A stretch of 20,000 nt of DNA from an uncultured virus (IMG/VR IMGVR_UViG_3300008111_000114). Taxonomy: Duplodnaviria; Heunggongvirae; Uroviricota; Caudoviricetes. A program made the translations under genes and the position numbers. The stretch lies in IMG/VR virus record IMGVR_UViG_3300008111_000114; one strand, written 5' to 3'. Positions 1 to 18,184 of the stretch are shown here, one piece after another. The first letter of the stretch is position 1, and the number at the start of each line of letters is the position of its first letter. The notes under the pieces were generated by a model, which was not told where the DNA came from, did not search any database, and saw only the letters and a program-made list of their open reading frames with translations.

Positions 1-11
1 TCAGATGTGTT

Positions 12-45
12 GGGGGGAGGTCAAATACCCCTCCCCCACATTTTT
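12..45. terminator. GC-rich hairpin downstream of ORF 44-466, possible intrinsic terminator
   Basis: GGGGGAGG..CCTCCCCC inverted repeat. The T tract (41-45) is on the + strand, so polarity is uncertain. Confidence 0.4.
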
Positions 46-466
46 ACAAGTATCGGGCGATAGCGTTGTAAGTAGAAGTAGAAACTACTTCCTCATCGGT
101 CATCTTGAGAATACGAATTGCGTTCTCAATTTCCTCTACCATCTCATTGTAAGAGTGGCGGTGGATTTGCTCAAAATCACGCTCAGGTTGCTTAGGAAAA
201 TCCTTTTCCTCAACAATCAAATCAAAATCAACATTGAGAGTGTTGTTCCAATGACGATAGTTCGTGCGAACATTTTGAGCCTTAGCGATTTGCGCTGTGG
301 CAAACTTAGCAATTTCTTTGTTCCATTTCTCAACGGACTTCTGATACTTTGCCTCGTTCTCATCTTGCTTAGCATAATCATTTTTGATTTCTGCTAACTT
401 AGTTTCCAAAGCCTTGATAACTTTGGGTGTTGCGATTTTTACATTTATCGCTTTTCCTCTTGCCAT
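44..466 (-). CDS. hypothetical phage protein, 140 aa, coiled-coil-like
   Basis: ORF with RBS AGAAAGGA and its own promoter at 495-516. Confidence 0.85.
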   Translation of the reverse strand: MARGKAINVKIATPKVIKALETKLAEIKNDYAKQDENEAKYQKSVEKWNKEIAKFATAQIAKAQNVRTNYRHWNNTLNVDFDLIVEEKDFPKQPERDFEQIHRHSYNEMVEEIENAIRILKMTDEEVVSTSTYNAIARYL

Positions 467-528
467 TTTGTTTCCTTTCTTAGTTGGTATTACTATTCTA
501 TCAGACCTTACCGACAGAATAAAGTTGG

Positions 529-558
529 TGAGCAGTTTTGATTGACTTGCTCAGGTCA
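529..558 (-). ncRNA. 30-nt H-type pseudoknot element, copy 1
   Basis: TGAC-CTGAGCAA-GTCA-ATCAAAAC-TGCTCA, same geometry as 9553-9582. Confidence 0.65.
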
Positions 559-573
559 GTTTCATCTGATAAA

Positions 574-723
574 CTACTTGATAGTAGTCCAGCGAGTTTC
601 GCCCTCTACATCAAGACGAACACGCACCGAGCCAGATGGGTTCTTTACGACTTCCTTTACAACGCCAGAAACTTTGCTCTGAGCGGTTGTAATGGTTTCA
701 CCGATTTTTGGTGTCTTAGCCAT
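574..723 (-). CDS. hypothetical protein, 49 aa (MAKTPKIGETITTAQSKVSG...RWTTIK), not in the ORF track
   Basis: Manual translation, RBS GAAAGGA, promoter at 754-775. Confidence 0.85.
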   Translation of the reverse strand: MAKTPKIGETITTAQSKVSGVVKEVVKNPSGSVRVRLDVEGETRWTTIK

Positions 724-811
724 TTTTGCTTCCTTTCGTTTGTTGGTAATAATAGTTTAGCATTTCAGACCGACAGAGCGCAAATCCAAATACGGACAAA
801 TCGGACATTTT

Positions 812-1621
812 CTAAAAAACTTTTGTGGGAAAAATCACAGTGTCGTAATTTGACAAACGCCTTGCGGCGGGGTGGGCCTCAGCTCTTACGGTACAAGATA
901 TAAACAATTTAGTTGCGCTAAATCTAATGTCAGCCTTACCATAAACACAAAGACCACACGATACACACGCAGAGCCTGCTTGTGAAATTAATGGAATACG
1001 TTTTGCATTTTCAGGGCACTTTGCACCAACCTTGCCAGTTAATTCTTTCATTTTGTTTTCGGTTAACGCAAACGTTTTGCCTAAGTATGCCAGGCGCACA
1101 CCATGATTAATTTTTAAGTCTTCCGCAATGGATACGTTTTCGTCGTCGGTAGAGAAATAAAGAGATAGGTTAGGGATACCCTTAAGCAATTCCGCCGCAG
1201 ACTTTACACGAGTGTAGACCCAAAATTGAATGTCGGGATGACGGCGAACAATTTCAGCCCATGCGATTGTATAAGTATCGTTAAAGAAATCTCCGTCCCA
1301 ATGGATACGGAATAATTGTTTTGCATTACGCTTTACACAGTCAGCCTTGAAATCAATAATCATTTCATCAAGAAGAGACACCATAGTGTCATAGTCAGCG
1401 TCTTTTAGTAATTCCCAATTGTGAAGAAGAGTGGCCTTTACTCCCTTGTAGATTTTTTCGAGTTTTCCTGCATAGCAAACGCTTTCACAAACACTAGTGG
1501 CACCAGGACACGAGAAATTTTTTCCAGCAGGTAGACCGAAAGTGTTGGCGATTGTTGGGGTTTTTCCATTTGGGGAGACTGCATTTGCAACCTTTCTATC
1601 ATTAGAGCGTTTTAGTTTCAT
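812..1621 (-). CDS. GP88-like protein (mycobacteriophage L5 gp88 family, radical-SAM-like Fe-S protein)
   Basis: SCPGATSVCESVCYA, FRIHWDGDFF, FWVYTR and C-terminal CP...CxxCxxC motifs. The last ~30 aa run through a regulatory spacer. Confidence 0.8.
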   Translation of the reverse strand: MKLKRSNDRKVANAVSPNGKTPTIANTFGLPAGKNFSCPGATSVCESVCYAGKLEKIYKGVKATLLHNWELLKDADYDTMVSLLDEMIIDFKADCVKRNAKQLFRIHWDGDFFNDTYTIAWAEIVRRHPDIQFWVYTRVKSAAELLKGIPNLSLYFSTDDENVSIAEDLKINHGVRLAYLGKTFALTENKMKELTGKVGAKCPENAKRIPLISQAGSACVSCGLCVYGKADIRFSATKLFISCTVRAEAHPAARRLSNYDTVIFPTKVF

Positions 1622-1643
1622 GGGGCACCTTTCTTTCTTTATT

Positions 1644-1781
1644 CTATTCTACACCATAGGGGCGACATTTATGCTTGCGCTTGCGAGAATACGCCTTTTT
1701 ATTTTTTACAGGCGTGGCTGCATTACTACGGCGTAACTCCATAAGTCGCCGTAATTCCTCAGCATTTTTTTTCGTTCTCAT
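1644..1781 (-). CDS. basic 45-aa peptide with an ArfA-like KNKKAYSRKRKHK motif, near-leaderless, not in the ORF track
   Basis: MRTKKNAEELRRLMELRRSNAATPVKNKKAYSRKRKHKCRPYGVE. The ATG lies 8 nt after the -10 box at 1790-1795. Confidence 0.75.
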   Translation of the reverse strand: MRTKKNAEELRRLMELRRSNAATPVKNKKAYSRKRKHKCRPYGVE

Positions 1782-1922
1782 AATAAACTAGTCTAGCATA
1801 ACCCACTGACATTCCACAAAATTTCGGCGTTTCTACGTAAAGCTCATAAATCGGACATTACAGGCCCGCCGCTGTCGGGCGTGTCGTGTCAAGTCGACAC
1901 GCCGCAGCAATTATGAATTAGA

Positions 1923-2207
1923 TCACAATTCGCTTTCGATTACCCATTCCCACAAGTGGTGAGCGTCAATAATCGCATTCGCTGGCGCAGTAATTTTATT
2001 TCTCCAAGTTACTCCGTCTGGTAATGAAATTTCTTTATCGTGTTCACCTGAATTGTATGCGTCAAGTGCTTCGATACAAACGGGCACCATTGAATGGGGA
2101 ACGGGCGGGTAATGATTAGAACGCAATTGAATAGTAATCGCAGTCTCCAAATCTAAATCAGGAAACAAATCCTTATCCGCTAATTCCGTTGATAGATTAC
2201 TTCCCAT
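1923..2207 (-). CDS. hypothetical phage protein, 94 aa
   Basis: ORF overlapping the upstream gene end, RBS GGAG, internal promoter at 2243-2264. Confidence 0.8.
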   Translation of the reverse strand: MGSNLSTELADKDLFPDLDLETAITIQLRSNHYPPVPHSMVPVCIEALDAYNSGEHDKEISLPDGVTWRNKITAPANAIIDAHHLWEWVIESEL

Positions 2208-2406
2208 TTACTTCTCCATTTCGATAGAAATTCTTTGTATACATTTTACCCATTGGGTCTGACAAGTTATAGGTTGCGTATTCTTTAGCATCGCCAAAAT
2301 CTACGCATTTATTCCAAGCATCTACGGCTTCAAGCATATCGGTATAGCGATACGCACCAAATAGTTTTCCGTCATAGGAAACTGTAAGAGAGTAGTTATA
2401 TTCCAT
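2197..2406 (-). CDS. hypothetical protein, 69 aa (start revised to MEYNYS)
   Basis: ATG at 2406 overlaps the TAA of ORF 2406-2516 (TAATG coupling). Confidence 0.8.
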   Translation of the reverse strand: MEYNYSLTVSYDGKLFGAYRYTDMLEAVDAWNKCVDFGDAKEYATYNLSDPMGKMYTKNFYRNGEVNGK

Positions 2407-2516
2407 TAGTCTTTCCATTCTAGCGCAAGGCAAGCGCATTTAGTTATCTTTAGTGTATCGCCACGCATTTCTACTGTGGCAAGGGTATCGCATTTATCGC
2501 ATAAGAACAATTCCAT
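2406..2516 (-). CDS. 36-aa Cys-rich peptide (CxxC...CxC), not in the ORF track
   Basis: MELFLCDKCDTLATVEMRGDTLKITKCACLALEWKD, TAATG-coupled at both ends. Confidence 0.7.
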   Translation of the reverse strand: MELFLCDKCDTLATVEMRGDTLKITKCACLALEWKD

Positions 2517-2677
2517 TAGAACACCACTTCCATTCCTTCTAGAACAAGATTGTGAGGATTACACTCACAATACTCAAAATCATAGTCCCCGTCTGGAGAA
2601 ACCCAACCTGTAAATCCTTTGCCGTAGCAAGTATCGCAAGCGAGTATATTTTCAATAAGTCTTTTTATAGCAGACAT
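2516..2677 (-). CDS. 53-aa zinc-finger-like protein (CxxCxGxG...CxC), not in the ORF track
   Basis: Manual translation, RBS AGAAAGGA, promoter at 2702-2723. Confidence 0.8.
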   Translation of the reverse strand: MSAIKRLIENILACDTCYGKGFTGWVSPDGDYDFEYCECNPHNLVLEGMEVVF

Positions 2678-2724
2678 TTTATTTCCTTTCTTTATGAATA
2701 AAGTCTATCAGAACCCACCGACAT

Positions 2725-2940
2725 TTAGTAGTCGGTTATTCTGACGGCTACTGTTGCCCATTGGTCATTTAGACGACCCGTTGGGCGATAGCGAATAGCG
2801 AAGGCTTCATAGCCTTCGGGTGGATAGACATCTTCACGCTTTTCTGCGTGGTTGATAATACCTCCGTTGAAACGGCGGGATAGGGATTGTGGGGCATAGT
2901 AAGTATCTACTAGCAAATCAACTATGGAATATGCTCTCAT
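2725..2940 (-). CDS. hypothetical protein, 71 aa
   Basis: RBS AGAAAGGA and promoter at 2967-2988. Loosely similar to ORF 5964-6164 (YSI..LLV..Y......L.G.I..AEK). Confidence 0.85.
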   Translation of the reverse strand: MRAYSIVDLLVDTYYAPQSLSRRFNGGIINHAEKREDVYPPEGYEAFAIRYRPTGRLNDQWATVAVRITDY

Positions 2941-3190
2941 TAGTTTTTCCTTTCTTTATACCTACAATTTTACACGACCCGACTGACATTTCTCTACTTA
3001 CTAGCGAGTAATTCCAAATAGTAAGACGCTCAGCCGTGTGAGAAATCTCACAAGATCTGGCTGTCAAGTCGACACGCCGTAAATTTCAAAAAAATTCTGG
3101 CAATTCCACGTAATCGTACATAATGCGTAAAACGGACATTTCGGGCAGGCCCGCCGCTGTCGGGCGTGTCGCAATTAGTTGAAAGTTGAA

Positions 3191-3304
3191 CTATTCTTTT
3201 TTTAGATCAGCTTTGAAATCTTTTATTGCTAAAACTAAAAGTGGAATTGTTACACCCGCCAAAATTATTTGAACGAGTGTTGTTAGAATTCTATTTGTTG
3301 TCAT
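3191..3304 (-). CDS. 37-aa single-TM membrane peptide, not in the ORF track
   Basis: MTTNRILTTLVQIILAGVTIPLLVLAIKDFKADLKKE, RBS AGGAG. Confidence 0.7.
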   Translation of the reverse strand: MTTNRILTTLVQIILAGVTIPLLVLAIKDFKADLKKE

Positions 3305-3307
3305 TTT

Positions 3308-3577
3308 TTATTCTCCTAAAACTTCTTTAGAAATATTTTCAATTTCATTTATTTCTGAAATCATTTCGTGCATTTGAGTTTCAGATAAAATTGCGTGGCT
3401 AACCAAAGTTGCAGTTAGCGCAGAAAGAGTTGCGGAATATTCAAATAACATTCTCGCCATTGTGTCATTATCAACATCATTTCGCATTTGAAAAATAGCA
3501 GCAGCCATCTGCATTACTTGTTCATCTTGAAACGCTTCTTGAGTTGCGTCTTGAATTTTTAGAGCGGTGCTTATCAT
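3308..3577 (-). CDS. hypothetical protein, 89 aa
   Basis: ORF, TAATG-coupled, RBS GAGGAG. Confidence 0.8.
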   Translation of the reverse strand: MISTALKIQDATQEAFQDEQVMQMAAAIFQMRNDVDNDTMARMLFEYSATLSALTATLVSHAILSETQMHEMISEINEIENISKEVLGE

Positions 3578-3729
3578 TACTTATTCTCCTCAACATCTAG
3601 AACTTCGAAAGCGTCAAACTTGATTAGTTCGCTATCAGGCAAATAGCGGAGAGATTTATTCAGGGCAAAGATAGCGGATAAATCGGTGTCGGCTTCCACG
3701 ACATAGGAGATTAGAATATTTTTTTTCAT
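3577..3729 (-). CDS. hypothetical protein, 50 aa (MKKNILISYVVEAD...), not in the ORF track
   Basis: Fills the gap exactly, TAATG-coupled at both ends. Confidence 0.75.
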   Translation of the reverse strand: MKKNILISYVVEADTDLSAIFALNKSLRYLPDSELIKFDAFEVLDVEENK

Positions 3730-3917
3730 TAGTTATTTTCCATTTCTTGTTGTAGCATTTTGATAATTTTCTTAGCATTCTTTTCAGAAATAAAAACCGA
3801 CATTGTGCCGATTTGACGAGCCATTGAAGTTGTAGAGTTTAGAGAACTATTAGGAAACTTTTTTTCCTCAAGTTTCCTAAATAAATCTCCGATTTCGTTT
3901 AGTGTTGAGAGTTCCAT
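3729..3917 (-). CDS. hypothetical protein, 62 aa
   Basis: ORF, TAATG-coupled. Confidence 0.75.
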   Translation of the reverse strand: MELSTLNEIGDLFRKLEEKKFPNSSLNSTTSMARQIGTMSVFISEKNAKKIIKMLQQEMENN

Positions 3918-4099
3918 TATTTCTTACGACCTTTCAATACTCCACGAATTGAAAGCACATCACAATCAAACTTTACAGAGATACCGACAGGGAGAGTGTC
4001 GGGATAAGTTGATACGAATTGAGCAACCGCACCTTTAGAGGGCAGGGATAGAGTTTTTACAGAACCATTGAAGGTTTCTAGTCTTACTTGATAAGTCAT
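3917..4099 (-). CDS. hypothetical protein, 60 aa
   Basis: RBS AGAAAGGA, promoter at 4125-4146. Confidence 0.8.
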   Translation of the reverse strand: MTYQVRLETFNGSVKTLSLPSKGAVAQFVSTYPDTLPVGISVKFDCDVLSIRGVLKGRKK

Positions 4100-4192
4100 T
4101 TTGACTTCCTTTCTTTAGGTAATAATTGTAGCATTGGGGGCTGACATTTTGGGGATTTCCCGCCGTGTCGGGGTGTGATTTGTATCACACGA

Positions 4193-4285
4193 TTACTCGT
4201 GGATACAATTGGACTCGATTTCGTGTCCAAATTCCTCTACGAGTTCCTCGTAGATTTCATCAAGATAATCAAGATAATCTGACAT
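4193..4285 (-). CDS. 30-aa highly acidic peptide, not in the ORF track
   Basis: MSDYLDYLDEIYEELVEEFGHEIESNCIHE, RBS AGAAAGGAG. Confidence 0.7.
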   Translation of the reverse strand: MSDYLDYLDEIYEELVEEFGHEIESNCIHE

Positions 4286-4299
4286 TACTTTCTCCTTTC

Positions 4300-4572
4300 T
4301 TAGAGATTACAGGCAACGCCTGTGCTATGAACACCTTGTTCATAGTGGTTTTTTTCTATACAATTTTTTTGTAAATCGTGAAAGATTTTACAACGCATTT
4401 CGTGATAGTTTATGAAATCTTTATGAACGACTTTATCGCAAGTCTGGCAGAAGTGCCATTTATGATTATCCTTACGGATAACCTTGTTATCTATTACATC
4501 ATAGCGGTCTATGAATTTTTTAGAGTGTGAGCAATCGTTTGCTTTACACTTATTTACTTTAGTGTTAGTCAT
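4300..4572 (-). CDS. Cys/His-rich hypothetical protein, 90 aa
   Basis: RBS AGAAAGG, promoter at 4607-4628, CxxC...H...C motif. Confidence 0.8.
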   Translation of the reverse strand: MTNTKVNKCKANDCSHSKKFIDRYDVIDNKVIRKDNHKWHFCQTCDKVVHKDFINYHEMRCKIFHDLQKNCIEKNHYEQGVHSTGVACNL

Positions 4573-4726
4573 TTTATTACCTAACCTTTCTTTTTGTTAT
4601 GCCACTATTCTAGCAGGGGGGTCTGACATTTTCGGGGGTATAAATCGGTCAAATCGGACATTGTGAGCCACATCACATATGACCTACATCACATTGTGAT
4701 CGAAATCACAAAAATTTCCAGCGATT

Positions 4727-4933
4727 TCACGGCGTGTCGTATTGACAAAAAGTTATCCACAGGGAAACATTACCACGAGGAATTTCAATGTGGCACTTGA
4801 AGCATAACATTTTTACTTCTGCTTTAGTTAGCAGAGCAATTTCCAAATCTAGTTTAGTAGAAGCGGAAGCATTTTCTAATGATACCCAACCAGCACCATT
4901 TTCATTCATTTCAAAAATTTCTAAGTTAGCCAT
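4727..4933 (-). CDS. hypothetical protein (start revised to MANLEIF), C-terminus possibly truncated or read-through
   Basis: ATG lies 2 nt after the upstream stop. A single CxxC is followed by read-through across DnaA and GACAC motifs. Confidence 0.65.
   Translation of the reverse strand: MANLEIFEMNENGAGWVSLENASASTKLDLEIALLTKAEVKMLCFKCHIEIPRGNVSLWITFCQYDTP
4753..4761 (+). promoter_or_regulatory. DnaA box
   Basis: Exact TTATCCACA, single copy seen. Confidence 0.45.
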
Positions 4934-4935
4934 TT

Positions 4936-5118
4936 TTACAACACCCAACTTTCTTGAGTGTATGCTAACCACTCACCAAGGGTCATTATTCCCTTGTATT
5001 CATTACACTTACCGCAGAAAACTTCTCCTGCGTAGTCTGAGCAAAACACGCAAACAATCAAGTTTGCTTCATCAACGGAAACATTTTCCAATGTTATTTC
5101 TTTTATTAGTGTAGTCAT
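4936..5118 (-). CDS. zinc-ribbon-like protein, 60 aa (CxxC...CxxC)
   Basis: RBS AGAAAGGTAGG, promoter at 5171-5192. Confidence 0.8.
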   Translation of the reverse strand: MTTLIKEITLENVSVDEANLIVCVFCSDYAGEVFCGKCNEYKGIMTLGEWLAYTQESWVL

Positions 5119-5361
5119 TTTCTGACCTACCTTTCTTGTCGAGAACCTTTCTCAACCTTCTATACCTAGAAGTCTAACATAGACCACTGACATTTTGACC
5201 CGTTTTTCGGGCGTGTCGCAAAACTATTTTTGTGATTTACACCACATTTCTGGGGGCTTTTCAAATCGTCTTAAATCGGACATTTCGGACACAGGCCCGC
5301 CGCTGTCGGGCGTGTCGCAGCTTTTGTCAAGGCGACACGCCGATCAGTTTTGTGAGTTATC

Positions 5362-5532
5362 TCACCAGCCTTTTTTGACTGCCTCAAAAAATCGAGGGCG
5401 GGAAAATCTAGGATTATCCTTTGCGAAATAGTCAGAGAAATCTCCAGCCATTTCCAAAATCAAATCGGGATTTTCTGGATAAGCCTGATTCAAAATATCA
5501 GCAGCGGTTATATAGTCTTTTCTAGTCATCAT
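5362..5532 (-). CDS. hypothetical protein, 56 aa (start revised to MMTRKDY)
   Basis: Start follows the stop of 5534-5698 and the C-terminus is F..DNPRF...RF..A. Confidence 0.8.
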   Translation of the reverse strand: MMTRKDYITAADILNQAYPENPDLILEMAGDFSDYFAKDNPRFSRPRFFEAVKKGW

Positions 5533-5533
5533 T

Positions 5534-5698
5534 TTACTTATTACGCTTTCTAAATAGTTTGATATCATTACGCTTTAGAATTTTATTTACAAAATAAATT
5601 ACAACAACGGAGCCAAGAAATCCCCATGTGAAATCTAGAGCAATAAAATCAGAATAGAAGCCGAAGCCCCATTTTGAGAATTCTATTTGAATTTCCAT
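5534..5698 (-). CDS. 54-aa putative membrane protein, not in the ORF track
   Basis: MEIQIEFSKWGFGFYSDFIALDFTWGFLGSVVVIYFVNKILKRNDIKLFRKRNK, RBS GAAAGGA. Confidence 0.7.
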   Translation of the reverse strand: MEIQIEFSKWGFGFYSDFIALDFTWGFLGSVVVIYFVNKILKRNDIKLFRKRNK

Positions 5699-5702
5699 TT
5701 TA

Positions 5703-5870
5703 TTAGTTATCCTTTCCGTTAGTTTGTTCGACCTTACGCATATGCGCTACGACATTCTTAGAAACTTTTTGTAGTTCAGTTACAAAAATGTTCATTTCTT
5801 CAGGTGAAGAAGCGGTGAAGCCAGTGCCTAGAAGTTGAGCACCATCCCAGATTGAGTATGTGATTTTCAT
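5703..5870 (-). CDS. hypothetical protein, 55 aa (MKITYSIWDGAQLLG...), not in the ORF track
   Basis: Manual translation, RBS AGGA, promoter at 5908-5929. Confidence 0.8.
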   Translation of the reverse strand: MKITYSIWDGAQLLGTGFTASSPEEMNIFVTELQKVSKNVVAHMRKVEQTNGKDN

Positions 5871-5963
5871 TTATTTATTTCCTATTCTTTTAGTTTGTTA
5901 TGTCTTTAGACTACACTACGGGGGCGACATTTTCAAGCCGCCACGCCGTAGCGTTTGTGTGAT

Positions 5964-6164
5964 TTAGTTCACACTAACCGCTATTGTGCGGAATGAATTA
6001 CGGAATGAGTTCGGATTGCGAACCTCTACAAGATACGCCTCAGCGTTTTCATACCATACGGCATGAGGATGCTTTTCGGCGGATACAATTTCACCCGTTA
6101 GGGTTTTAGAGCGATAGGTTTTTCCTACTAGTAGGTTTTCAATTGAGTAGACATTTGCGGACAT
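5964..6164 (-). CDS. hypothetical protein, 66 aa
   Basis: RBS AGAAAGGGG and a long leader from the promoter at 6280-6301. Confidence 0.85.
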   Translation of the reverse strand: MSANVYSIENLLVGKTYRSKTLTGEIVSAEKHPHAVWYENAEAYLVEVRNPNSFRNSFRTIAVSVN

Positions 6165-6195
6165 TTTGTCCCCTTTCTTTTTTAGTTTGTCTTTT

Positions 6196-6250
6196 AGGGT
6201 TTTATTTGCTTAGGCTCACCTTTCGGATTATTTGCTAAGGCTCACACCCT
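6196..6250 (-). other. two-fold symmetric leader element (tandem 18-nt repeat)
   Basis: GTGAGCCTWAGCAAATAA at 6202-6219 and 6228-6245, separated by CC-GAAA-GG and closed by AGGGT/ACCCT. Confidence 0.65.
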
Positions 6251-6335
6251 TTAATTCTTATTTAATTTTCTATGTCTTAAGACTATCAGACTTGACCGAC
6301 ATTTTCAAGCCGACACGCCGTCTAGCGGGTGTGAT

Positions 6336-6539
6336 TTATGCCACTTGGCATAGACCGCTAGTGGCTTTCCAACTAGACCAACCCGATAGGCGGTCTTCAT
6401 CATCAACCCAAAAGGCTGAGATATCTAACCCGCATTTAGCGCAGGTAGCGTGTCTATCCCATTCATCTGAGACGATAGAAGCGGGGATAGCGGAATGGGT
6501 AGAGAACCCTAGTTTAGTTAGTAGTGTTTGTTCATTCAT
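6336..6539 (-). CDS. hypothetical protein, 67 aa (CxxC)
   Basis: RBS AGAAAGG, promoter at 6577-6598. Confidence 0.8.
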   Translation of the reverse strand: MNEQTLLTKLGFSTHSAIPASIVSDEWDRHATCAKCGLDISAFWVDDEDRLSGWSSWKATSGLCQVA

Positions 6540-6678
6540 TTAGTGAACCAACCTTTCTTTAGTTTGTTATAGTAGAATACTAACACACACCACTGACATT
6601 TTCAAGGGGACAATTCGGACATATGGGATAAATTGAAAAAAATCTTTGTGACCTTGCTCACAAATATGTGCTCATTAT

Positions 6679-6694
6679 TAGAACAGATGTTCGA
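6679..6694. promoter_or_regulatory. actinobacterial-type LexA (SOS) box
   Basis: TAGAACAGATGTTCGA, one mismatch to TCGAAC-N4-GTTCGA. Confidence 0.65.
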
Positions 6695-6841
6695 TTTTAA
6701 AAAGCTGCATCATACAAAATAAAAATTTATTAACATTTCCTATAGATCATAAATAAACAGGGCTAATAAGAATATTTGCCATATAATGTCTATATAACTT
6801 ATAATTGATTATCTACGTCTAATAATTTAGGAGGACGGGAT

Positions 6842-6979
6842 ATGACAAAACAGCAATATCTAGCTGATACGCTACAAAAGCTTATACAGTCAGGAAAGTA
6901 CTTTAATAACGGTACTATAAATTTCGACGGGATAGCAGAAGAACTTCTTCTTGCCCTAGAGAGCTTTACTCCAGAGTAA
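6842..6979 (+). CDS. hypothetical protein, 45 aa (MTKQQYLADTLQ...), not in the ORF track
   Basis: RBS AGGAGG at 6829-6834, TATAAT at 6782-6787. Confidence 0.65.
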   Translation: MTKQQYLADTLQKLIQSGKYFNNGTINFDGIAEELLLALESFTPE

Positions 6980-7346
6980 TATCTACTGTTGTTCTCTCTA
7001 ATTCGGCGGGAGTCCATAAACCTACTTTAGAATCTCCCATATAACCCTTAGCCATTCCTTTGGCTACCATTTGATCATTAATGGAGATATCACTATTGAT
7101 ATATATCTTACCTAGATATCTACCGTACTTATCTGGTTTAAAGACTTCGAGTTTTACGAGCTTCCCCGCCAAAAGTTGGGTAAGGTATGCCTTAGTAGCT
7201 TTTCCATAGGGAGTATTCTTTTCGGCTGTATCTACCCCTACAAGGCGAATACGCTCTGATCTCCATACTTTAAATCCAAGGTCGATAAAAACATCTACAG
7301 TGTCGCCATCGACGACATTTTCTATTTTAGTGTAATACGTGTACAT
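6966..7346 (-). CDS. thermonuclease (SNase family)
   Basis: VVDGDT, RIRLVGVDTAE and DKYGRYLG motifs. Confidence 0.92.
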   Translation of the reverse strand: MYTYYTKIENVVDGDTVDVFIDLGFKVWRSERIRLVGVDTAEKNTPYGKATKAYLTQLLAGKLVKLEVFKPDKYGRYLGKIYINSDISINDQMVAKGMAKGYMGDSKVGLWTPAELERTTVDITLE

Positions 7347-7696
7347 TATTTTATAAAGCTCCCATTCCAGAATTTATCCATATCGTTATCTTCGTCTGTA
7401 TCGTTTTCGGCGTTCACTAATCCATCTGGAATAGCCGCTAATCTACACATACCATTTTCTTCTACATTAAACGATAGGATCTTACATCCTAATTCCATAC
7501 TCCCAGGAATTTCTACATGGAAAGAGCAATTTCCGCATTTTACCCCTATGGAGGCATTTTCATTATCTGAACCTTCTTCATATCCGACCCATACACTCCC
7601 GCTTCCTTTATCAAAGGGCCCGAATTTCTGGACTACTCCAAGTAGGGCGTCATGATAGGCTTTTTCAACGGGGGTTAATTGGTCATATAGGTTCAT
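7346..7696 (-). CDS. hypothetical protein with a HiPIP-like 4-Cys motif, leaderless (start revised to MNLYDQ)
   Basis: TATAAT-6nt-ATG, motif CGNC...GC.I....V...GMC. Confidence 0.75.
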   Translation of the reverse strand: MNLYDQLTPVEKAYHDALLGVVQKFGPFDKGSGSVWVGYEEGSDNENASIGVKCGNCSFHVEIPGSMELGCKILSFNVEENGMCRLAAIPDGLVNAENDTDEDNDMDKFWNGSFIK

Positions 7697-7765
7697 ATAG
7701 CTATTATACAGGAGTATCTTCATCGTCGGCGGCGCACTGATCACTATATATGATAATATAATCAT

Positions 7766-7840
7766 ATGAAGAATGATGGTAAATGTGATAGGGAAGAAGG
7801 ACCAGACTGGCTAGATCTCTACCCAGACGATATAATATAG
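7766..7840 (+). CDS. possible leaderless 24-aa peptide
   Basis: TGA-TAATAT-6nt-ATG, MKNDGKCDREEGPDWLDLYPDDII. Confidence 0.35.
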   Translation: MKNDGKCDREEGPDWLDLYPDDII

Positions 7841-7862
7841 TTAGCACTTCAGTACGGCGTAT

Positions 7863-7895
7863 ATTCATATAATGTTCATATCTAGTTATCTAAAT
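7863..7895 (+). promoter_or_regulatory. PHO-box-like array of three 11-nt direct repeats
   Basis: ATTCATATAAT/GTTCATATCTA/GTTATCTAAAT upstream of TATACT (7924-7929) and pstS. Confidence 0.65.
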
Positions 7896-7938
7896 ATGGG
7901 TGTATACCAGCAGCCCCATATTGTATACTAGAGTTACT

Positions 7939-8976
7939 ATGAGAAATAAATCTATAGTCATAACGCTAGCATTGGTTGCTGGCATCTTTACATCACATCC
8001 CGCCACCGCATCAGAAGATGTAGTTGGATCGGGATCATCATTTATATCAAATTACCTTGACGCATGCAGAATTAGTTATGCCAAGGCAACTGGAAACACC
8101 ATCACCTATTCTTCATTAGGATCTGGTGCTGGTAGATCACAATTAAACAATAAGATCATCGACTTTGCTGGAACAGATACCCCATATAATCCAGGAGAAT
8201 TAAAGCCATCTGGTATAGTCTACATTCCTTTTATTGCTGGCCCTATCGGAGTCATCTATAGACTTGATGGATATTCAAAGCCTATACAACTTAAAAAAGA
8301 AACATTGGCAAATATTTTTGCAGGTAAGATTACAAAATGGAATCATAAGTCTATTATTTCAGATAACACAATTAAGGGAGTCAAACCAAAGATTCCAGCA
8401 ACAGCTATTCGAATTGCTTATCGTGCAGACGGATCTGGAACAAGTCAGATATTTACAGAATATTTAAATTCAGTAGCCCCAACAATTTGGACTAAAGCAG
8501 GCAATAAAGACTTTAAGACTGCTTATCCTGGAACATTGTCTTTTACTTCACAGGCAGGGTCAGGATCTCATGGAGTCGTAATGATAGCCCGTCAAATGAA
8601 TGGCGTAATAACATACGCAGAGTCTTCCTTTGCGGGTGGATTAAAACTTGCCTTAATTGAAAATGGTGCTGGTAAATTTACTGCCCCTACTTCAAAAGCA
8701 GCATCTCAATTCCTTAGTGATTTTGAGCCATTGGCTAACGGACTCATAAAGGCAAACTATAACAATAAAAACCCTTTATCGTATAACTTATCAGCATTTA
8801 GTTATATAGTTGCATTTAAGGAAAATACGCCAAGAAATGACGCAGTTAAAGAATTTATATCATTTGCTGTGACTAAATGTAATAAGGAGGCTGTGGCTAC
8901 TGGATACTCTCCTTTAGTTGGACCAGTACTTGCTATTGCCAAGTCTAAAATAGCCGAAGTCTCTTCTGGCGAGTAA
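7939..8976 (+). CDS. pstS: phosphate ABC transporter substrate-binding protein (auxiliary metabolic gene)
   Basis: GSGSSF, GSGAG, DFAGTD, IFAGKITKWN and RADGSGTS motifs, signal peptide from ATG 7939. Confidence 0.95.
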   Translation: MRNKSIVITLALVAGIFTSHPATASEDVVGSGSSFISNYLDACRISYAKATGNTITYSSLGSGAGRSQLNNKIIDFAGTDTPYNPGELKPSGIVYIPFIAGPIGVIYRLDGYSKPIQLKKETLANIFAGKITKWNHKSIISDNTIKGVKPKIPATAIRIAYRADGSGTSQIFTEYLNSVAPTIWTKAGNKDFKTAYPGTLSFTSQAGSGSHGVVMIARQMNGVITYAESSFAGGLKLALIENGAGKFTAPTSKAASQFLSDFEPLANGLIKANYNNKNPLSYNLSAFSYIVAFKENTPRNDAVKEFISFAVTKCNKEAVATGYSPLVGPVLAIAKSKIAEVSSGE

Positions 8977-8999
8977 ATATCAAATTTGATATAATAGGT

Positions 9000-9026
9000 T
9001 TAGCACTCTGCTTCGGGGAGTGCTAA
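9000..9026. promoter_or_regulatory. CIRCE operator (HrcA site)
   Basis: Exact TTAGCACTC-N9-GAGTGCTAA just after TGATATAAT and upstream of hsp20. Confidence 0.88.
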
Positions 9027-9054
9027 ATCTAACTCGCTTAATAAAGGAGCAAAA

Positions 9055-9477
9055 ATGGTAAATTATATCAACTCAACGGTCAGCGTTTATGACCCATTCA
9101 AGTTCGTAGACCAGCTATGGAATCAAACTGTAGCATCTGCGGCAACGTCATGGCAGGATTCATATCCTCCATTTAATATCAGAGAAATTGATGAGGATAC
9201 CCGTGTGCTTGAACTGGCTACCGCTGGTTTTGCAAAGGACGAAATCGCTATCAAGATCGAAGACGATGTTGTAACAATCTCAGGAGAAAAAGCTAAGCAG
9301 GACGAAGAGCCAAAATACCTACATAAGGGTATTGCAACTCGTAAGTTTGCCAAAACTATTACTCTTTGGGAGTATTGGGAAGTAGACTCTGCTGACTATA
9401 AGGATGGAATCCTCAATGTAGTTCTAAAAAGAGAGATTCCAGAAGAGAAAAAGCCTAGACAAATTAAGATCAAGTAG
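9055..9477 (+). CDS. hsp20: small heat-shock protein, Hsp20/alpha-crystallin family
   Basis: YPPFNI, LELATAGF, YLHKGIATRKF and A.YKDGIL motifs, C-terminal IxI, RBS AAGGAG. Confidence 0.95.
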   Translation: MVNYINSTVSVYDPFKFVDQLWNQTVASAATSWQDSYPPFNIREIDEDTRVLELATAGFAKDEIAIKIEDDVVTISGEKAKQDEEPKYLHKGIATRKFAKTITLWEYWEVDSADYKDGILNVVLKREIPEEKKPRQIKIK

Positions 9478-9491
9478 GCTATAATTAATAT

Positions 9492-9587
9492 GTGCACCGC
9501 CGTGTTACTTTCCGTTCTACCTTTCTTGCGGATAGCTTAGTGCGGGCATAAGGGCCCTGAGCATGGCCATGTAAACTGCTCATTTTT
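9492..9587 (+). ncRNA. candidate sRNA with an anti-SD loop and a 3' pseudoknot
   Basis: TATAAT at 9480-9485, nested stems, loop TCTACCTTTCTT, pseudoknot at 9553-9582, then T5. No convincing ORF. Confidence 0.6.
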
Positions 9588-9645
9588 CTATTCCTGATAG
9601 AATAGAGGTATATCCACTGAGGATATTTTAAAGGAGAAAACATAT

Positions 9646-9972
9646 ATGTCAATCAATAAAGCAATGCTAGATTCATATGCCCGTAACCTTGCAGGTCAAG
9701 TAATCGGTGCAATTGTAATCGTAATGCAAACAGCAAATGTCGGATCACCAGTTGATTTTGGTTCATCTGAATGGCTACTTGTTGCAAATGCTCTTTGGTC
9801 TTCCGCCGTTCCAACATTAATCCGTTGGGCGAATAAGAAGGATCCAGCATTTGGACGTGTAGCAACATCTGTAGTTGCGGAAGCAACTAAGAAGCTAGAA
9901 ACAGCAGCGACTGCTTCAGCCGCAAAGAAGACAGCAGCAAAGAAAACTGCAGCTAAGAAGACGGTGAAGTAG
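9646..9972 (+). CDS. putative holin with a KKTAA-repeat basic tail
   Basis: Two hydrophobic segments, directly upstream of the endolysin, RBS AAGGAG. Confidence 0.7.
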   Translation: MSINKAMLDSYARNLAGQVIGAIVIVMQTANVGSPVDFGSSEWLLVANALWSSAVPTLIRWANKKDPAFGRVATSVVAEATKKLETAATASAAKKTAAKKTAAKKTVK

Positions 9973-9974
9973 TA

Positions 9975-10772
9975 GTGGGAGCAAAAGGGTCTTTAGAAGC
10001 AATCATTGAGGTTGCTAAAAAAGAAATAGGAACTATCGAGGGACCTAAAGATAACGAAACCAAGTATGGTAAATGGACTGGTGCAAACTTCTTGCCTTGG
10101 TGCCAATCTTTCGTTTCATGGTGTGCATTTACTGCAGGCCTAGACGCAAAGAAATACCCAAAGACTGCAGCAACTGTTGCAGCTTCAGATTGGTTTAAGA
10201 AGAATAATCGTTGGGCAGATGCTCGTAACGATGATCCTACACCAGGAGATTGGATTTATTTCGATTTCCCAGATGATGGAGTCAACAGAATTTCACACGT
10301 TGGACTTTGCATCAAGAATAACGGTGATGGAACAATTCAAGTTATCGAAGGTAACACTTCAGGAACTGCTAAGGGCGATCAAAGAAATGGCGGAATGTGC
10401 GTAGAGAAAACTCGTGCATACGTAAAGAATAACAAGAAGAAGCTAATTAATGCTGTAGTTGGTTGGGGACGTCCAGTTTATGCTGGAGAAGAAAACCTAC
10501 CACTACTATCTAAAGTTGGATCTTCTGACGCTCCAGCAGCACCTGCTAAGCCAGCGGCACCAAAAGCACCTGCTGCGCCAGCACAGTTCATTGATCTTAA
10601 AGTTGGTGCAAAAGGACAAAAAGTAAAAGTTGTTCAAACTGCACTAAAACTTAAGGCTGATGGCGAGTTTGGTCCTGCAACAGAAAAAGCTGTAAAGGCT
10701 TATCAGAAGGCCAAAGGTCTTCCAGAGACTGGTATTGTTGATCAAAAAACATTCAAGGCTCTAAAGGGCTAA
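9975..10772 (+). CDS. endolysin with a CHAP/NlpC-P60-type peptidase domain, Pro/Ala linker and PG_binding_1 domain
   Basis: PWCQSFVSW, SHVGL, IEGNT and DGEFGPATEKAVKAYQ..GL..TGIVD motifs. Confidence 0.9.
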   Translation: MGAKGSLEAIIEVAKKEIGTIEGPKDNETKYGKWTGANFLPWCQSFVSWCAFTAGLDAKKYPKTAATVAASDWFKKNNRWADARNDDPTPGDWIYFDFPDDGVNRISHVGLCIKNNGDGTIQVIEGNTSGTAKGDQRNGGMCVEKTRAYVKNNKKKLINAVVGWGRPVYAGEENLPLLSKVGSSDAPAAPAKPAAPKAPAAPAQFIDLKVGAKGQKVKVVQTALKLKADGEFGPATEKAVKAYQKAKGLPETGIVDQKTFKALKG

Positions 10773-10780
10773 TAAGCTCT

Positions 10781-10822
10781 AAAAAAATATCCCCTAGGAG
10801 AAATCCTGGGGGATTATTTTTT
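10781..10822. terminator. bidirectional intrinsic terminator
   Basis: A tract, TCCCCTAGGA/TCCTGGGGGA hairpin and T tract between convergent genes. Confidence 0.85.
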
Positions 10823-10997
10823 AATACTCTTCGTCTTCGAAGTCATCTTCGTATTCTTCTGCCTTTTCAGTTGACACCTCTAACACCTCTGTGTTTTCAG
10901 CAGAACCGAGAAGATCGAAAGAATCGATGATGGAATCAATATTGTCGACTTTGTTGATATCTACTTCTAGATTCAATGTTACGAAATATTTAGGCAT
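10821..10997 (-). CDS. acidic hypothetical protein, ~58 aa
   Basis: RBS GGAGG before MPKYF, D/E-rich tail. Confidence 0.7.
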   Translation of the reverse strand: MPKYFVTLNLEVDINKVDNIDSIIDSFDLLGSAENTEVLEVSTEKAEEYEDDFEDEEY

Positions 10998-11175
10998 CTT
11001 CATCCTCCACTAGTGATGGCGGTGGTGTAAGGATCTTACCTTCTGCATGAAGATTTCTAATCTCTAAGGCCTCTTCGCCCTTACCAACACCGTCGGCTAT
11101 AATCATAAGCATATCATACACTCTTGATAGTTGTATATAGATTCCAAGTAAAATATTTTCGTTTTCTTCAGCCAT
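10990..11175 (-). CDS. hypothetical protein, 61 aa
   Basis: ORF overlapping both neighbours by 8 nt. Confidence 0.75.
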   Translation of the reverse strand: MAEENENILLGIYIQLSRVYDMLMIIADGVGKGEEALEIRNLHAEGKILTPPPSLVEDEDA

Positions 11176-11380
11176 TCAATTCTCGTTCCATTGTTTTATA
11201 TGTTTCCAGTCCTACATACACTCTATCATTACATTCTAGGCAAAATAGGTACACACCGTCATCGTCAAAACCAGATAGTAGCTTGACACTGCACGAAACA
11301 TTATGTGAAAAGTCTGTGCGAGTATCAAGCCACTGTCTTACGACTCTGATATCAATTACCCCAGTGTTATCTATTTGCAT
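11168..11380 (-). CDS. small Cys-containing protein, 70 aa, leaderless
   Basis: TGA-TACAGT-6nt-ATG, LFCLECN motif. Confidence 0.75.
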   Translation of the reverse strand: MQIDNTGVIDIRVVRQWLDTRTDFSHNVSCSVKLLSGFDDDGVYLFCLECNDRVYVGLETYKTMERELNG

Positions 11381-11412
11381 AGATTAACTGTATCATTTGA
11401 TTTTACCGAATG

Positions 11413-12036
11413 TCAAGCTTCGACTGGTATTTTATAAGGGGTTAGATCCACTTTAGGGAAGTTAAGTACCCATGTTTTGGCTTTCTGGATTGAATTGGTC
11501 CATGAAGACCAATCTCCTCCACCCTGAGACATATGAAATGCAATTTCTGCATTGGTAACTGGATTTAGCAACTCCTTATTGCTATCAAGCCCGAACTTCT
11601 TACGACGCTCTGGCCCTAGGTTTCCAATCATATTGATTTGGAAGATCCCGTAAGAACTATCTCCAGTCTTTGTATTACCATTATATGCCACGGGGCGGCC
11701 ATTGGACTCCGTTTTTGCGATAGCCCAGGCCTTCTTAAGCTCATTACCTTCAAAGCCTACTAAATACAATAAAATAGCAAGGTCTTCGTCAGTTAACTTC
11801 TTAGCCTTTTTAAATTGCTCAAGCTTATTAGTTCTAGCTTTCACAATTTCCATGGTTTTCTTTAAAGATTCAAGATACTCCTGATATTCACGAGTAGTCT
11901 TTAAATCTTCTAAGTTACTTACCTTTTTTAACGGTTCTTTTGTATATCTACTAAAATCTATACTAGGAGTAATATTAATTCCTAATATAAATATTAATAA
12001 ATAACTAAGTAACCTAATACTTAGGTTTTTACTCAT
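11413..12036 (-). CDS. membrane-anchored lysozyme-like/SLT lytic transglycosylase
   Basis: N-terminal TM segment, AIAKTES, SYGIFQIN, LLNPVTNAEIA and DWSSW motifs. Confidence 0.85.
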   Translation of the reverse strand: MSKNLSIRLLSYLLIFILGINITPSIDFSRYTKEPLKKVSNLEDLKTTREYQEYLESLKKTMEIVKARTNKLEQFKKAKKLTDEDLAILLYLVGFEGNELKKAWAIAKTESNGRPVAYNGNTKTGDSSYGIFQINMIGNLGPERRKKFGLDSNKELLNPVTNAEIAFHMSQGGGDWSSWTNSIQKAKTWVLNFPKVDLTPYKIPVEA

Positions 12037-12042
12037 TATATT

Positions 12043-12071
12043 ATAATAACCTCTTTCTTGTACCTTGTCAA
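12043..12071 (-). promoter_or_regulatory. sigma70/SigA-type leaderless promoter
   Basis: TTGACA-17nt-TATTAT-6nt-ATG. Confidence 0.75.
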
Positions 12072-12134
12072 GACTTTTTTTTAAAAAATCTTTGTGATAT
12101 ACTGAAAATATTCTGAAGCGAAAGGTAGTACCCC

Positions 12135-13115
12135 TTGCATATAAGTTTTTTTACATCCGAATCTGGATATAATCCCGCCGTTGGATACGGCCAGGCCAGC
12201 ATGGGCATAATCACTTCCCTTCAGAAATTAGGTCATTTGGTCACTCCAAACAACGCTAAAGCTGACCTTCAGCTTAATTTCATATCACCCATCGCATACA
12301 AATACAACAGGCCTACTCAATATACTATCGGATATACACCGTGGGAGTCAACCCTTTTGCCTCATTTCTGGAAAGAAAATATGAATCGGTGTGATGAAGT
12401 ATGGGCAACATGCGCTTTCAATGCTTGGGTATATAAAGAGCAGGGTGTAACAAGACCAATAAAGATTTATAAGCATGGACTGCATGACGTATGGAAAAAT
12501 TCTACAAAAAGAACTGTTGGATCAAAGTTTAGATTTTTACACATTGGTGAACCATCAGAGAGAAAAGGTGGAAGTTTAACTGTAAAGACATTTATAGAAA
12601 CATTCGGAAATAACCCTGATGTCGAATTAACTGTAAAGTGTCATGAGACAAGTACAATAAGGGTTTACGATATGTTTGGCGAAAGAGTTGATTTCTCTAA
12701 ATATCCTAATATTAAGTTTGTCTCAAAAGAAATGTCTGATGAAGAGCTAGTGATGCTTATGCATTCTCATCACTGTTTGATCTACCCGTCCTACGGAGAG
12801 GGTTTTGGTTTTATTCCTATTCAAGCAATGGCGACGGGAATGCCAGTAATTTGCACAGAGGCTTGGGCACCATATAAAGAATTTATAACCCTAAAGCTAC
12901 AGTCAACACTTGGAGATTCTCCTTGGCCATTAATGCTTCCAGGAAAAATGTTTCATCCAGATGTCGACCACTTAAAATATTTAATGACAGAAGTTGTTTA
13001 TAAATATGATCAGTATGTTGAAACTGCCCTGAGTAATCTAGATGAAATGTATAAACAATATGATTGGCTTACCTTAACCGAAAAAGCTTTTGCCCATTTA
13101 AAAAACATTGCATAA
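12135..13115 (+). CDS. glycosyltransferase, GT4/GT-B fold
   Basis: RKG and YPSYGEGFGFIPIQAMATGMPVI motifs, TTG start with RBS GAAAGGTAG. Confidence 0.9.
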   Translation: MHISFFTSESGYNPAVGYGQASMGIITSLQKLGHLVTPNNAKADLQLNFISPIAYKYNRPTQYTIGYTPWESTLLPHFWKENMNRCDEVWATCAFNAWVYKEQGVTRPIKIYKHGLHDVWKNSTKRTVGSKFRFLHIGEPSERKGGSLTVKTFIETFGNNPDVELTVKCHETSTIRVYDMFGERVDFSKYPNIKFVSKEMSDEELVMLMHSHHCLIYPSYGEGFGFIPIQAMATGMPVICTEAWAPYKEFITLKLQSTLGDSPWPLMLPGKMFHPDVDHLKYLMTEVVYKYDQYVETALSNLDEMYKQYDWLTLTEKAFAHLKNIA

Positions 13116-13207
13116 ACACTTCCGCACTCGTAAAAGCTTGTGGTAAGATTGTATCTCAACAAAAAATTTATTAAGTGCCAAGAGGCACTAGAAGGAGTTT
13201 CACAAAA

Positions 13208-15142: not shown

Positions 15143-15187
15143 AACTGTTTTTGTGATAAAATTGAATTAATCTGGAGGGATTAATTA

Positions 15188-15538
15188 ATGGCTGGTATTA
15201 AAAATTTTAAGGTAGATCAATCTACCAACTTTACCTTTACCATTATTTATAAAGATCCCGACGGAGATCCAATTGATTTAACACAGTATCGTGTATTTAT
15301 GGATATCAAATCTGCACCAGGCTCAAAGAAAGTATTAGCTTCTTTGACTCAAGGTAATGGCATTACTGTTACTCCCCTCCAGGGAAAAATTGAAGTTAAT
15401 GCTACTCCAGACAAGACATCAAAGTTTGCATATCCAAAATCAGCATACGATTTAGTTGTTGAACATATACCAACAGGCCAGCTCACAAGACTTGTGGAAG
15501 GTTGGCTAGAAGTTTCTAGGGCGGTGACAGTAGTCTAA
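15188..15538 (+). CDS. putative virion structural protein (BppU N-terminal-like Ig fold)
   Basis: DQ..F.F...YKD..G.PIDLT...YDL...RLVEG pattern at the head of the structural operon. Confidence 0.65.
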   Translation: MAGIKNFKVDQSTNFTFTIIYKDPDGDPIDLTQYRVFMDIKSAPGSKKVLASLTQGNGITVTPLQGKIEVNATPDKTSKFAYPKSAYDLVVEHIPTGQLTRLVEGWLEVSRAVTVV

Positions 15539-15993: not shown

Positions 15994-16018
15994 TTTAAAA
16001 AACCTAGGAGTTATATAA

Positions 16019-17329: not shown

Positions 17330-17340
17330 GGAGAATATAA

Positions 17341-18051: not shown

Positions 18052-18057
18052 GAGATT

Positions 18058-18184
18058 ATGGCAAATACACCATGACACTATGATCCTTGACATGCGTACT
18101 GTGCTTGCACAGAATCTGCAGATTACAGGACTAGCTTCTACAGCTGGTGTTAAATTTCATATTTCAGGTGTAATAACACCATGA
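18058..18184 (+). pseudogene. structural gene remnant with an apparent internal deletion or frameshift
   Basis: RBS AGGAG and MANTP* are followed in another frame by HDTMILDMRTVL...VKFHISGVITP*, which is ATGA-coupled to the next gene. Confidence 0.65.

Follow-up and report, generated by a model that had tools for sequence, protein, structure and literature searches.

PafBC is a transcriptional activator present "in almost every actinobacterial species" (PMC8635444). The consensus from its chromatin immunoprecipitation sites is tGTCgg(N10)tA(N3)T, of which the 5' part, the "-26 element," lies at -23 to -28, and no -35 consensus accompanies it; the helix-turn-helix (HTH) of PafB contacts a GTC triplet that is strictly conserved across actinobacteria, while the HTH of PafC holds region 4 of sigma-A, an arrangement called sigma adaptation (PMC8635444). 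An older consensus for such RecA-independent promoters (RecA-NDp) reads tTGTCRgtg-8nt-TannnT (PMC5656591), and PafBC is reported to be activated by single-stranded DNA (ssDNA) (PMC11804915). Here we describe a 20,000-nucleotide stretch of DNA (the window) from the uncultured tailed phage IMGVR_UViG_3300008111_000114, the first 6.6 kb of which carry 13 sites with this layout. From their sequence, we infer that the 13 sites are promoters of a distinct class, built from a -26 box (aaA-TGTC-A/G-G-T-S-S), a fixed spacer of 10 nt, usually a TGn, and a TAnnnT -10 element. The RecA-NDp/PafBC motif, its -26 position, sigma adaptation, and the ssDNA trigger, as named in an initial annotation of this DNA, all agree with these papers.

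The pattern TGTC-N12-TAnnnT has 15 matches in the window, compared to 3.31 ± 1.91 expected, and none of 200 shuffled sequences reached 15. Thirteen of the matches are minus-strand sites within positions 495 to 6598 (Table 1). The remaining two are found at 6167 on the plus strand and at 16562 to 16583 on the minus strand, the latter within a plus-strand open reading frame (ORF). All 13 sites carry a GTC-type -26 element, TGTC[AG][GC], in the form of TGTCAG (six sites), TGTCGG (five), or TGTCGC (two). When the spacer in TGTC[AG][GC]-Nx-TAnnnT was varied from 5 to 16 nt over the first 7 kb, the minus strand gave 13 matches at x = 10 and 0 to 3 matches at every other length, and the plus strand gave none at x = 10. 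A TGn precedes the -10 element at nine sites. The thirteen copies of the initial annotation were thus recovered at the same coordinates, as were its invariant spacer length, its nine extended -10 elements, and its two copies inside coding sequence, which fall at 1646 to 1667 (in ORF 1644-1781) and 2243 to 2264 (in ORF 2197-2439).

All candidate genes between 44 and 6539 are on the minus strand, and each of the 13 sites lies just upstream of one of them, with a Shine-Dalgarno sequence and start codon following on the same strand after 23 to 56 nt or, in one case, 115 nt. An anchor that ignores the box, TGnTAnnnT alone, gave 14 matches on the minus strand of positions 1 to 7000, of which nine have TGTC[AG]G at the set distance upstream and five lack the box. 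By comparison with the ORF list, every match with the box is located outside ORFs and every match without it inside an ORF.

Conservation was assessed in related uncultured genomes from IMG/VR, of which G001 is the record nearest to the window and G003, G004, and G005 were also scanned for the box. Sites in forward and reverse orientation numbered 17 and 1 in G004, 25 and 2 in G005, 1 and 21 in G003, and 16 and 0 in G001, with 0 to 4 matches to reversed-pattern controls. In the complete relatives, all but one to four sites per genome fall within one block of 10 to 15 kb and share one orientation. G001 contains the 13 sites of the window unchanged and 3 further sites beyond the left end of the window, past which the promoter block therefore extends. 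A spacer scan over 159 overlapping relative loci returned 1806 matches at N10, 489 at N5, 160 to 170 at N12, N15, and N16, and no more than 71 at any other length tested. The profile of 1170 unique sites is aaA-TGTC-A(0.75)/G-G(0.97)-T(0.68)-S-S ... T(0.63)G(0.79)-n-TAtAAT: AAA precedes the box, T and then S-S follow it, and T-G stands before the -10 element. Building a profile and scanning whole genomes were checks proposed with the initial annotation; the profile agrees with the printed PafBC motif, and in the relatives the box is restricted to the block. The spacer, described in that annotation as fixed in length and variable in sequence, is indeed fixed in length, but its sequence is not free, as shown by the T-S-S after the box and the T-G before the -10 element.

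The box is also found when it is not searched for. We selected 706 unique sites in the relatives by TGnTAnnnT, a Shine-Dalgarno sequence, and a start codon alone, independently of TGTC. GTC occurs at exactly -15 to -13 in 508 of these 706 sites and at other offsets in 0 to 25, with the exception of 97 at -11, which we attribute to the second GTC in TGTCAGTC.

No conserved -35 element is present among the 1170 unique sites of the family. Within the window, TTGAAA is nevertheless found with a 17-bp spacer at 3 of the 13 sites (6577, 6280, and 5908), so the earlier statement that no -35 stands at the canonical distance is wrong for these three, which come first when the block is followed along its direction of transcription. 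A -35 with TTG occurs at sites 1, 2, and 5 of 19 in G003 and at sites 2 and 3 plus one later site in G005; in G004, a TTG hexamer fills the -35 slot at 1 of 17 sites, which is not among the first ones. These three genomes and the window phage are kin, and their -35 positions are not independent cases. The TTGAAA at the head of the block suggests that the first promoters could fire with sigma-A alone.

Position by position, the phage box matches the printed PafBC and RecA-NDp motifs as T-G-T-C-R-G-T-G/C, followed by an equal gap. The fixed 10-nt gap to tA(N3)T is present, and the consensus geometry would place the box at -23 to -28. Neither the sequence nor the offset of an upstream element is constrained in advance, and identity with a motif of the host phylum is therefore unlikely to be due to chance. 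Other genes in the window have promoters of the TTGACA type or, in the case of a PstS-like gene and hsp20, of a TGATATAAT...TTAGCACT type, in each case without the box. TGTC-box promoters are a block-specific class. The PstS-like gene and hsp20 share the motif TGATATAATA..TTAGCACT on the plus strand at ~7829 to 7848 and ~8988 to 9007, again with no TGTC box. On the minus strand, the genes that begin at 11380 and 12036 are preceded by TTGACA-type promoters, and their leaders are very short.

The comparison with PafBC presupposes an actinobacterial host, which the gene content of the phage makes likely. The G+C content of the window is ~40%, and at the DNA level it has no match among cultured phages. 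Its genes include those for a D29 gp88-like protein (PF17338), an SNase-type nuclease, a PstS-like phosphate-binding protein, Hsp20, a CHAP/peptidoglycan-binding endolysin, a glycosyltransferase, a class II ribonucleotide reductase, and tail-fiber-like proteins. The reductase is 66% identical to that of large Streptomyces phages, and the gp88-like protein is ~50% identical to mycobacteriophage homologues. Close relatives of the gp88-like protein occur in more than 590 IMG/VR stretches; four of the relatives are complete at 107 to 112 kb (CheckV estimate), and three of these four are classed with direct terminal repeats. The phage belongs to a large uncultured family with genomes of 105 to 112 kb.

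Five relatives were searched for diagnostic protein families. WhiB was found in all five; according to PMC10202952, WhiB occurs only in Actinobacteriota and in phages that infect them. Similar WhiB proteins occur in 203 records of cultured phages, every one of which bears the name of an actinobacterial genus (Streptomyces, 139; Mycobacterium, 45; Rhodococcus, 9; Gordonia, 6; and others). The presence of WhiB in every relative searched, together with a similarity confined to actinophages, makes an actinobacterial host likely. We conclude from sequence that the host is most likely a low-GC actinobacterium. The layout also resembles that of the Streptomyces phage PinkiePie (Stanwilliamsviridae), whose record opens on the left with small genes pointing leftward, followed by rightward genes for a glycosyltransferase and ribonucleotide reductase. 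No tyrosine integrase was found in the five relatives, which fits a lytic phage, and the window phage is probably lytic. A cyanophage was considered on account of the 40% G+C content and the PstS-like (7900 to 8976) and Hsp20 (9055 to 9477) genes, which are auxiliary genes better known from cyanophages. This reading was dropped because WhiB is present in all five relatives and because the reductase, gp88-like, and WhiB proteins are nearest to those of actinophages. The PstS-like protein is only 27 to 30% identical to cyanophage copies and 29 to 32% identical to Bdellovibrionales proteins; a scan of genome contigs with it gave only four Bdellovibrionales loci, at 29 to 32% identity, and was uninformative about the host.

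The initial annotation had left the activator open between the damage-sensing activator of the host and an HTH-WYL mimic made by the phage, and had called for a search of the phage for a WYL or sigma gene. In the five relatives, no WYL domain, no sigma-70 region 2 (Sigma70_r2), no HTH_11 above the cutoff, and no CRP-type HTH (HTH_Crp_2) was found. The C-terminal domain of MotA (MotCF, PF09158), AsiA (PF09010), and a T7-type RNA polymerase were likewise not found in any of the five, negatives that are weak in that the corresponding controls gave no signal. A Pfam scan of 36 window proteins also returned none of these (WYL, sigma-70, HTH_11, CRP-type, MotA, AsiA, or T7-type RNA polymerase). With neither a WYL nor a sigma-70 gene in the relatives, a host factor is likelier than a phage HTH-WYL mimic. 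A host factor is thus the simplest reader of the box, and the mimic is left without support. PafBC is the favored reader because it is the only host protein with structurally shown binding of this element at -26; on sequence evidence, we give host PafBC an even chance of being the protein that reads the box.

A second set of sites, which the regulatory picture in the initial annotation had missed, lies upstream of many of these promoters. Perfect TGTGA-N6-TCACA palindromes number six in positions 1 to 7000 (0.0075 expected) and zero in positions 7001 to 20000; looser copies are present at 824 to 839 and 5231 to 5246. The palindrome equals TGTGANNTANNTCACA, given as the consensus of GlxR (PMC4254451). 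In the relatives, a survey of the 200 nt upstream of each of 1214 unique promoters gave 478 palindromes, and the distance from the palindrome center to the T of TGTC peaks at 26 (11 cases), 36 (80), 46 (101), and 56 (51) nt, with a side peak at 41 nt (39). For an assumed start site, these centers correspond to approximately -54, -64, -74, and -84, in a register that is uncertain by ~3 nt. We infer that a CRP-family protein binds the palindromes, and the 10-bp ladder of distances suggests that another regulator of the host also acts here, always from a single helix face.

Table 1. Predicted promoters, CRP/GlxR-type palindromes, and hairpins in the first 6.7 kb of the window. Promoters are numbered in the direction of transcription; a dot marks features given no strand.
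Feature	Position	Strand	Description
Promoter 1	6577..6598	-	TTGAAA (-35, 17 bp) + aaaTGTCAG + TGn + TAGTAT; ORF 6336-6539 (67 amino acids [aa])
Promoter 2	6280..6301	-	TTGAAA + TGTCGG + TGn + TAGTCT; 115-nt leader to ORF 5964-6164 (66 aa); 22-mer identical in relative G005
Promoter 3	5908..5929	-	TTGAAA + TGTCGC + TAGTCT; ORFs 5703-5870, 5534-5698, 5362-5568
Promoter 4	5171..5192	-	TGTCAG + TGn + TAGACT, without -35; ORFs 4936-5118, 4727-4972
Promoter 5	4607..4628	-	TGTCAG + TGn + TAGAAT; ORF 4300-4572 (90 aa)
Promoter 6	4125..4146	-	TGTCAG + TGn + TACAAT; operon 3917-4099, 3729-3917, 3577-3729, 3308-3577
Promoter 7	2967..2988	-	TGTCAG + TAAAAT; ORF 2725-2940 (71 aa)
Promoter 8	2702..2723	-	TGTCGG + TGn + TAGACT; ORFs 2516-2677, 2197-2439
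Promoter 9 (weakest copy)	2243..2264	-	Within ORF 2197-2439; without AAA, without TGn; 35 nt ahead of ORF 1923-2207
Promoter 10	1790..1811	-	TGTCAG + TGn + TAGACT; ORF 1644-1781 (45 aa)
Promoter 11	1646..1667	-	TGTCGC + TAGAAT; overlaps end of ORF 1644-1781; D29 gp88-like gene 812-1621 (PF17338, E value 2e-54)
Promoter 12	754..775	-	TGTCGG + TGn + TAAACT; ORF 574-723 (49 aa)
Promoter 13	495..516	-	TGTCGG + TGn + TAGAAT; ORF 44-466 (140 aa)
CRP/GlxR-type palindrome TGTGA-N6-TCACA	6647..6662	.	Center 56 nt upstream of promoter 1 TGTC
CRP-type palindrome	5958..5973	.	Center 36 nt upstream of promoter 3 TGTC
CRP-type palindrome	4695..4710	.	Center 74 nt upstream of promoter 5 TGTC
CRP-type palindrome	4662..4677	.	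Center 41 nt upstream of promoter 5 TGTC
CRP-type palindrome	4174..4189	.	Center 35 nt upstream of promoter 6 TGTC
CRP-type palindrome	3037..3052	.	Center 56 nt upstream of promoter 7 TGTC
GC-rich hairpin pair, no U tract	5285..5350	-	-30.7 kcal/mol; just past stop of ORF 5362-5568; likely terminator of promoter 3 operon
GC-rich hairpin, no U tract, arms GGCGTGTCG / CGACACGCC	1855..1912	-	-24.3 kcal/mol; just past stop of ORF 1923-2207; likely terminator

Several other words recur in the block. ATGTCCG, mostly as AATGTCCGATTT, occurs on the minus strand upstream of promoters at 802 to 808, 1852 to 1858, 3133 to 3139, 4655 to 4661, 5277 to 5283, 6158 to 6164, and 6616 to 6622, and in the relatives this word peaks at 34 and ~108 nt upstream of the box. 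Single copies of the hairpin arms GGCGTGTCG / CGACACGCC, which hold GTGTC/GACAC, are located at 3070 to 3078, 3163 to 3171, 4731 to 4739, 5210 to 5218, and 6311 to 6319; five GC-rich arm copies are followed by TTGACA or TTGAAA. The 115-nt leader of promoter 2 contains, at ~6200 to 6250, two direct copies of the 19-nt word TTATTTGCTWAGGCTCAC (plus strand). A perfect DnaA-box word, TTATCCACA, stands between promoters at 4753 to 4761 on the plus strand and is also among the commonest 8-mers upstream of the promoters of the relatives. Upstream of the first box promoter is an AT-rich gap (6600 to 6840), and the best sigma-70-like match of the region, TTGCCA-18-TATAAT, lies on the plus strand at 6776 to 6805, ahead of a 45-aa ORF (6842 to 6979) with an AGGAGG ribosome-binding site. 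A search of positions 1 to 7900 for Rfam families found none.

The block was called an early region in the initial annotation, and it probably does consist of early, host-takeover genes, to judge by the size of the genes, their position, and analogy. It encodes dozens of small proteins without a Pfam or PHROG function. Relatives of the block were present in four metatranscriptome runs from four studies, as contigs that carry no start site, strand, or level and may reflect carryover of DNA. RNA-library contigs from mixed populations (X5 and X10) were joined across 4113 to 4609 and across 5890 to 6261, the break points falling within the promoter and leader repeats or beside them. These two joints suggest that related phages lack these single-gene cassettes, which would be in keeping with modular shuffling like that of the promoter early stem-loop elements (PeSLs).

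Several observations weigh against a reading by PafBC. Compared with the host consensus, the phage box is stricter, with six near-invariant positions and more A than G at position 5. Its sole difference in the core is the A (as part of AAA) that stands before it in place of the printed t; a stricter and slightly different box could mean another reader. The additional TGTC-bearing words upstream (AATGTCCGATTT and the GTGTCG/CGACAC arms with their GTGTC/GACAC) are no known feature of PafBC promoters. The box is absent from the cultured Streptomyces phages PinkiePie, Wakanda, and Annadreamy, which gave 0 to 4 matches versus 0 to 2 for the control. By manual count, the 16 TAGACT promoters of the terminal small genes of PinkiePie have a -35 with TTG in 11 cases and TAGACA in 3, and TGTC is present at only 6 of the 16, there as TGTCC. 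ClgR has also been reported to recognize RecA-NDp (Wang 2011, cited in PMC5656591). Finally, PafBC needs ssDNA to be active, a requirement that sits poorly with genes expressed at the very start, and three of the promoters keep a -35.

The box might instead be read by a different host protein, such as ClgR, the WYL-type SiwR, or WhiA, or it might simply aid an extended -10 element read by sigma-A while a CRP-type protein does the regulating. We consider this unlikely, but not negligibly so. Extended -10 promoters can work without a -35, and nine of the window sites have the extension; the CRP-type palindromes are phased in 10-bp steps upstream of promoters in the relatives. The GC-rich arms hold GACAC/GTGTC, which we take to be the WhiA motif, but the box itself reads ATGTC and not the WhiA word GTGTC. 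Six near-invariant positions at a fixed offset are what a sequence-specific protein contact would leave, not a passive spacer, and a perfect palindrome lies within 130 nt upstream of only 6 of the 13 window promoters. The report on ClgR speaks for a different host protein, as do the further WYL activators acting by sigma adaptation that are described in mycobacteria (PMC10693628), but PafBC is the protein structurally shown on exactly this element at -26 (PMC8635444).

It is likewise improbable, in our estimation, that the reader is an activator made by the phage or delivered with the virion, which would capture sigma region 4 in the manner of MotA and AsiA. True early promoters would then be the few with a -35 at the head of the block, the others would belong to a delayed-early or middle class, and the likeness to the PafBC box would be convergent. 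The geometry of T4 middle promoters is indeed similar, with a box ~12 nt upstream of a sigma-A -10 element taking the place of the -35, a parallel that is itself drawn in PMC8635444. The clustering of TTG-bearing promoters at the start of the block in the window, G003, and G005 would follow from such a scheme, but the single TTG site of G004 is not an early one. A box stricter than the host consensus and absent from the three cultured Streptomyces relatives would also suit a factor of the phage's own, and the dozens of small block proteins without an assigned function could hide one. However, none of the candidate reader families searched for in the five relatives matched (those of MotA, AsiA, and T7-type RNA polymerase without a positive control), and base-for-base identity in sequence and spacing with the -26 box of the host phylum would have to be a coincidence.

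That the repeats are recombination seams or terminator parts of mobile cassettes, with an incidental likeness to promoters, is very improbable: the two-library RNA contigs that join 4113 to 4609 and 5890 to 6261 do lack whole cassettes, but the sites combine a perfect sigma-A -10 element with TGn, a fixed distance to the Shine-Dalgarno sequence and start codon, a single orientation, and a position always upstream of genes, and in T4-type phages PeSLs are promoters and seams alike, which makes the two roles compatible (PMC2839356, PMC4122927).

If host PafBC is the reader, the block would be expressed as follows. The housekeeping sigma-A RNA polymerase of the host would transcribe the block promoters, with an adaptor protein on the -26 box substituting for the -35 contact. 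This adaptor would be PafBC, which would always be present in the host and would be switched on by ssDNA through sigma adaptation, and ssDNA arising from the entry or processing of phage DNA would fire the block. The -35-bearing promoters at its head would provide a factor-independent start, a host CRP-type dimer acting from one helix face would supply a second input, and the GC-rich hairpins without a U tract would end two operons. More tentatively, and with somewhat less than even confidence, we propose that the whole takeover program, at 13 to 25 promoters per genome, is wired to host PafBC and a CRP-type input, such that incoming DNA trips the sensor; the many consensus-strength boxes on phage DNA during its replication could also soak up PafBC and blunt the damage and defense response of the host.

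PafBC-type sigma adaptation has so far been known only for host DNA repair genes. The initial annotation knew of no description of such promoters in a phage, and our literature search, which covered titles and abstracts, likewise found no phage promoters of the PafBC or sigma-adaptation type described there. If the proposal is correct, no earlier phage regulon would have been controlled through a WYL activator of the host by sigma adaptation. It would represent a new form of viral transcription takeover by a widespread phage family, in which the phage exploits the alarm of the host and brings no factor of its own, and the entry of phage DNA would be coupled to the sensing of ssDNA. The block would also offer a natural set of consensus-strength PafBC-type promoters with which sigma adaptation could be dissected, along with hybrids that carry a -35 or CRP sites. 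The box further marks an uncultured family as one that probably infects low-GC actinobacteria, for which phage-host pairs are hard to establish.

With class I CRP promoters (CAP in Escherichia coli, GlxR/Crp in actinobacteria), the block shares perfect TGTGA-N6-TCACA palindromes in whole-turn steps upstream; it differs in that the core promoter is of the PafBC type and in that no CRP-type HTH was found in the five phage relatives. With the PeSLs of T4-type phages, it shares repeated promoter and hairpin cassettes that flank small variable genes; the two contig joints suggest that its relatives, too, may differ by whole cassettes with break points at these repeats. In contrast, the phage group and the promoter type are different, and the hairpins are GC-rich without U tracts; this likeness is drawn from what the abstracts on PeSLs describe. 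In T4 middle promoters (MotA box plus AsiA), a box at a fixed short distance from a normal -10 element replaces the -35, and protein bridges DNA and sigma region 4, as would be the case here. The bridging proteins of T4 are made by the phage and remodel sigma, whereas no such gene was found here and the box matches the site of a host activator. With the PafBC promoters themselves, the phage sites share the TGTC-R-G-t-g box, the 10-nt gap to TAnnnT, the predicted placement at -23 to -28, and the probable actinobacterial setting; a -35 is not conserved in the phage family as a whole, but is present at 3 of the 13 window sites. Unlike them, the phage sites number 13 to 25 per genome and head small genes without an assigned function instead of repair genes; most have an extended -10 element, some have a -35, and many have a phased CRP-type site upstream.

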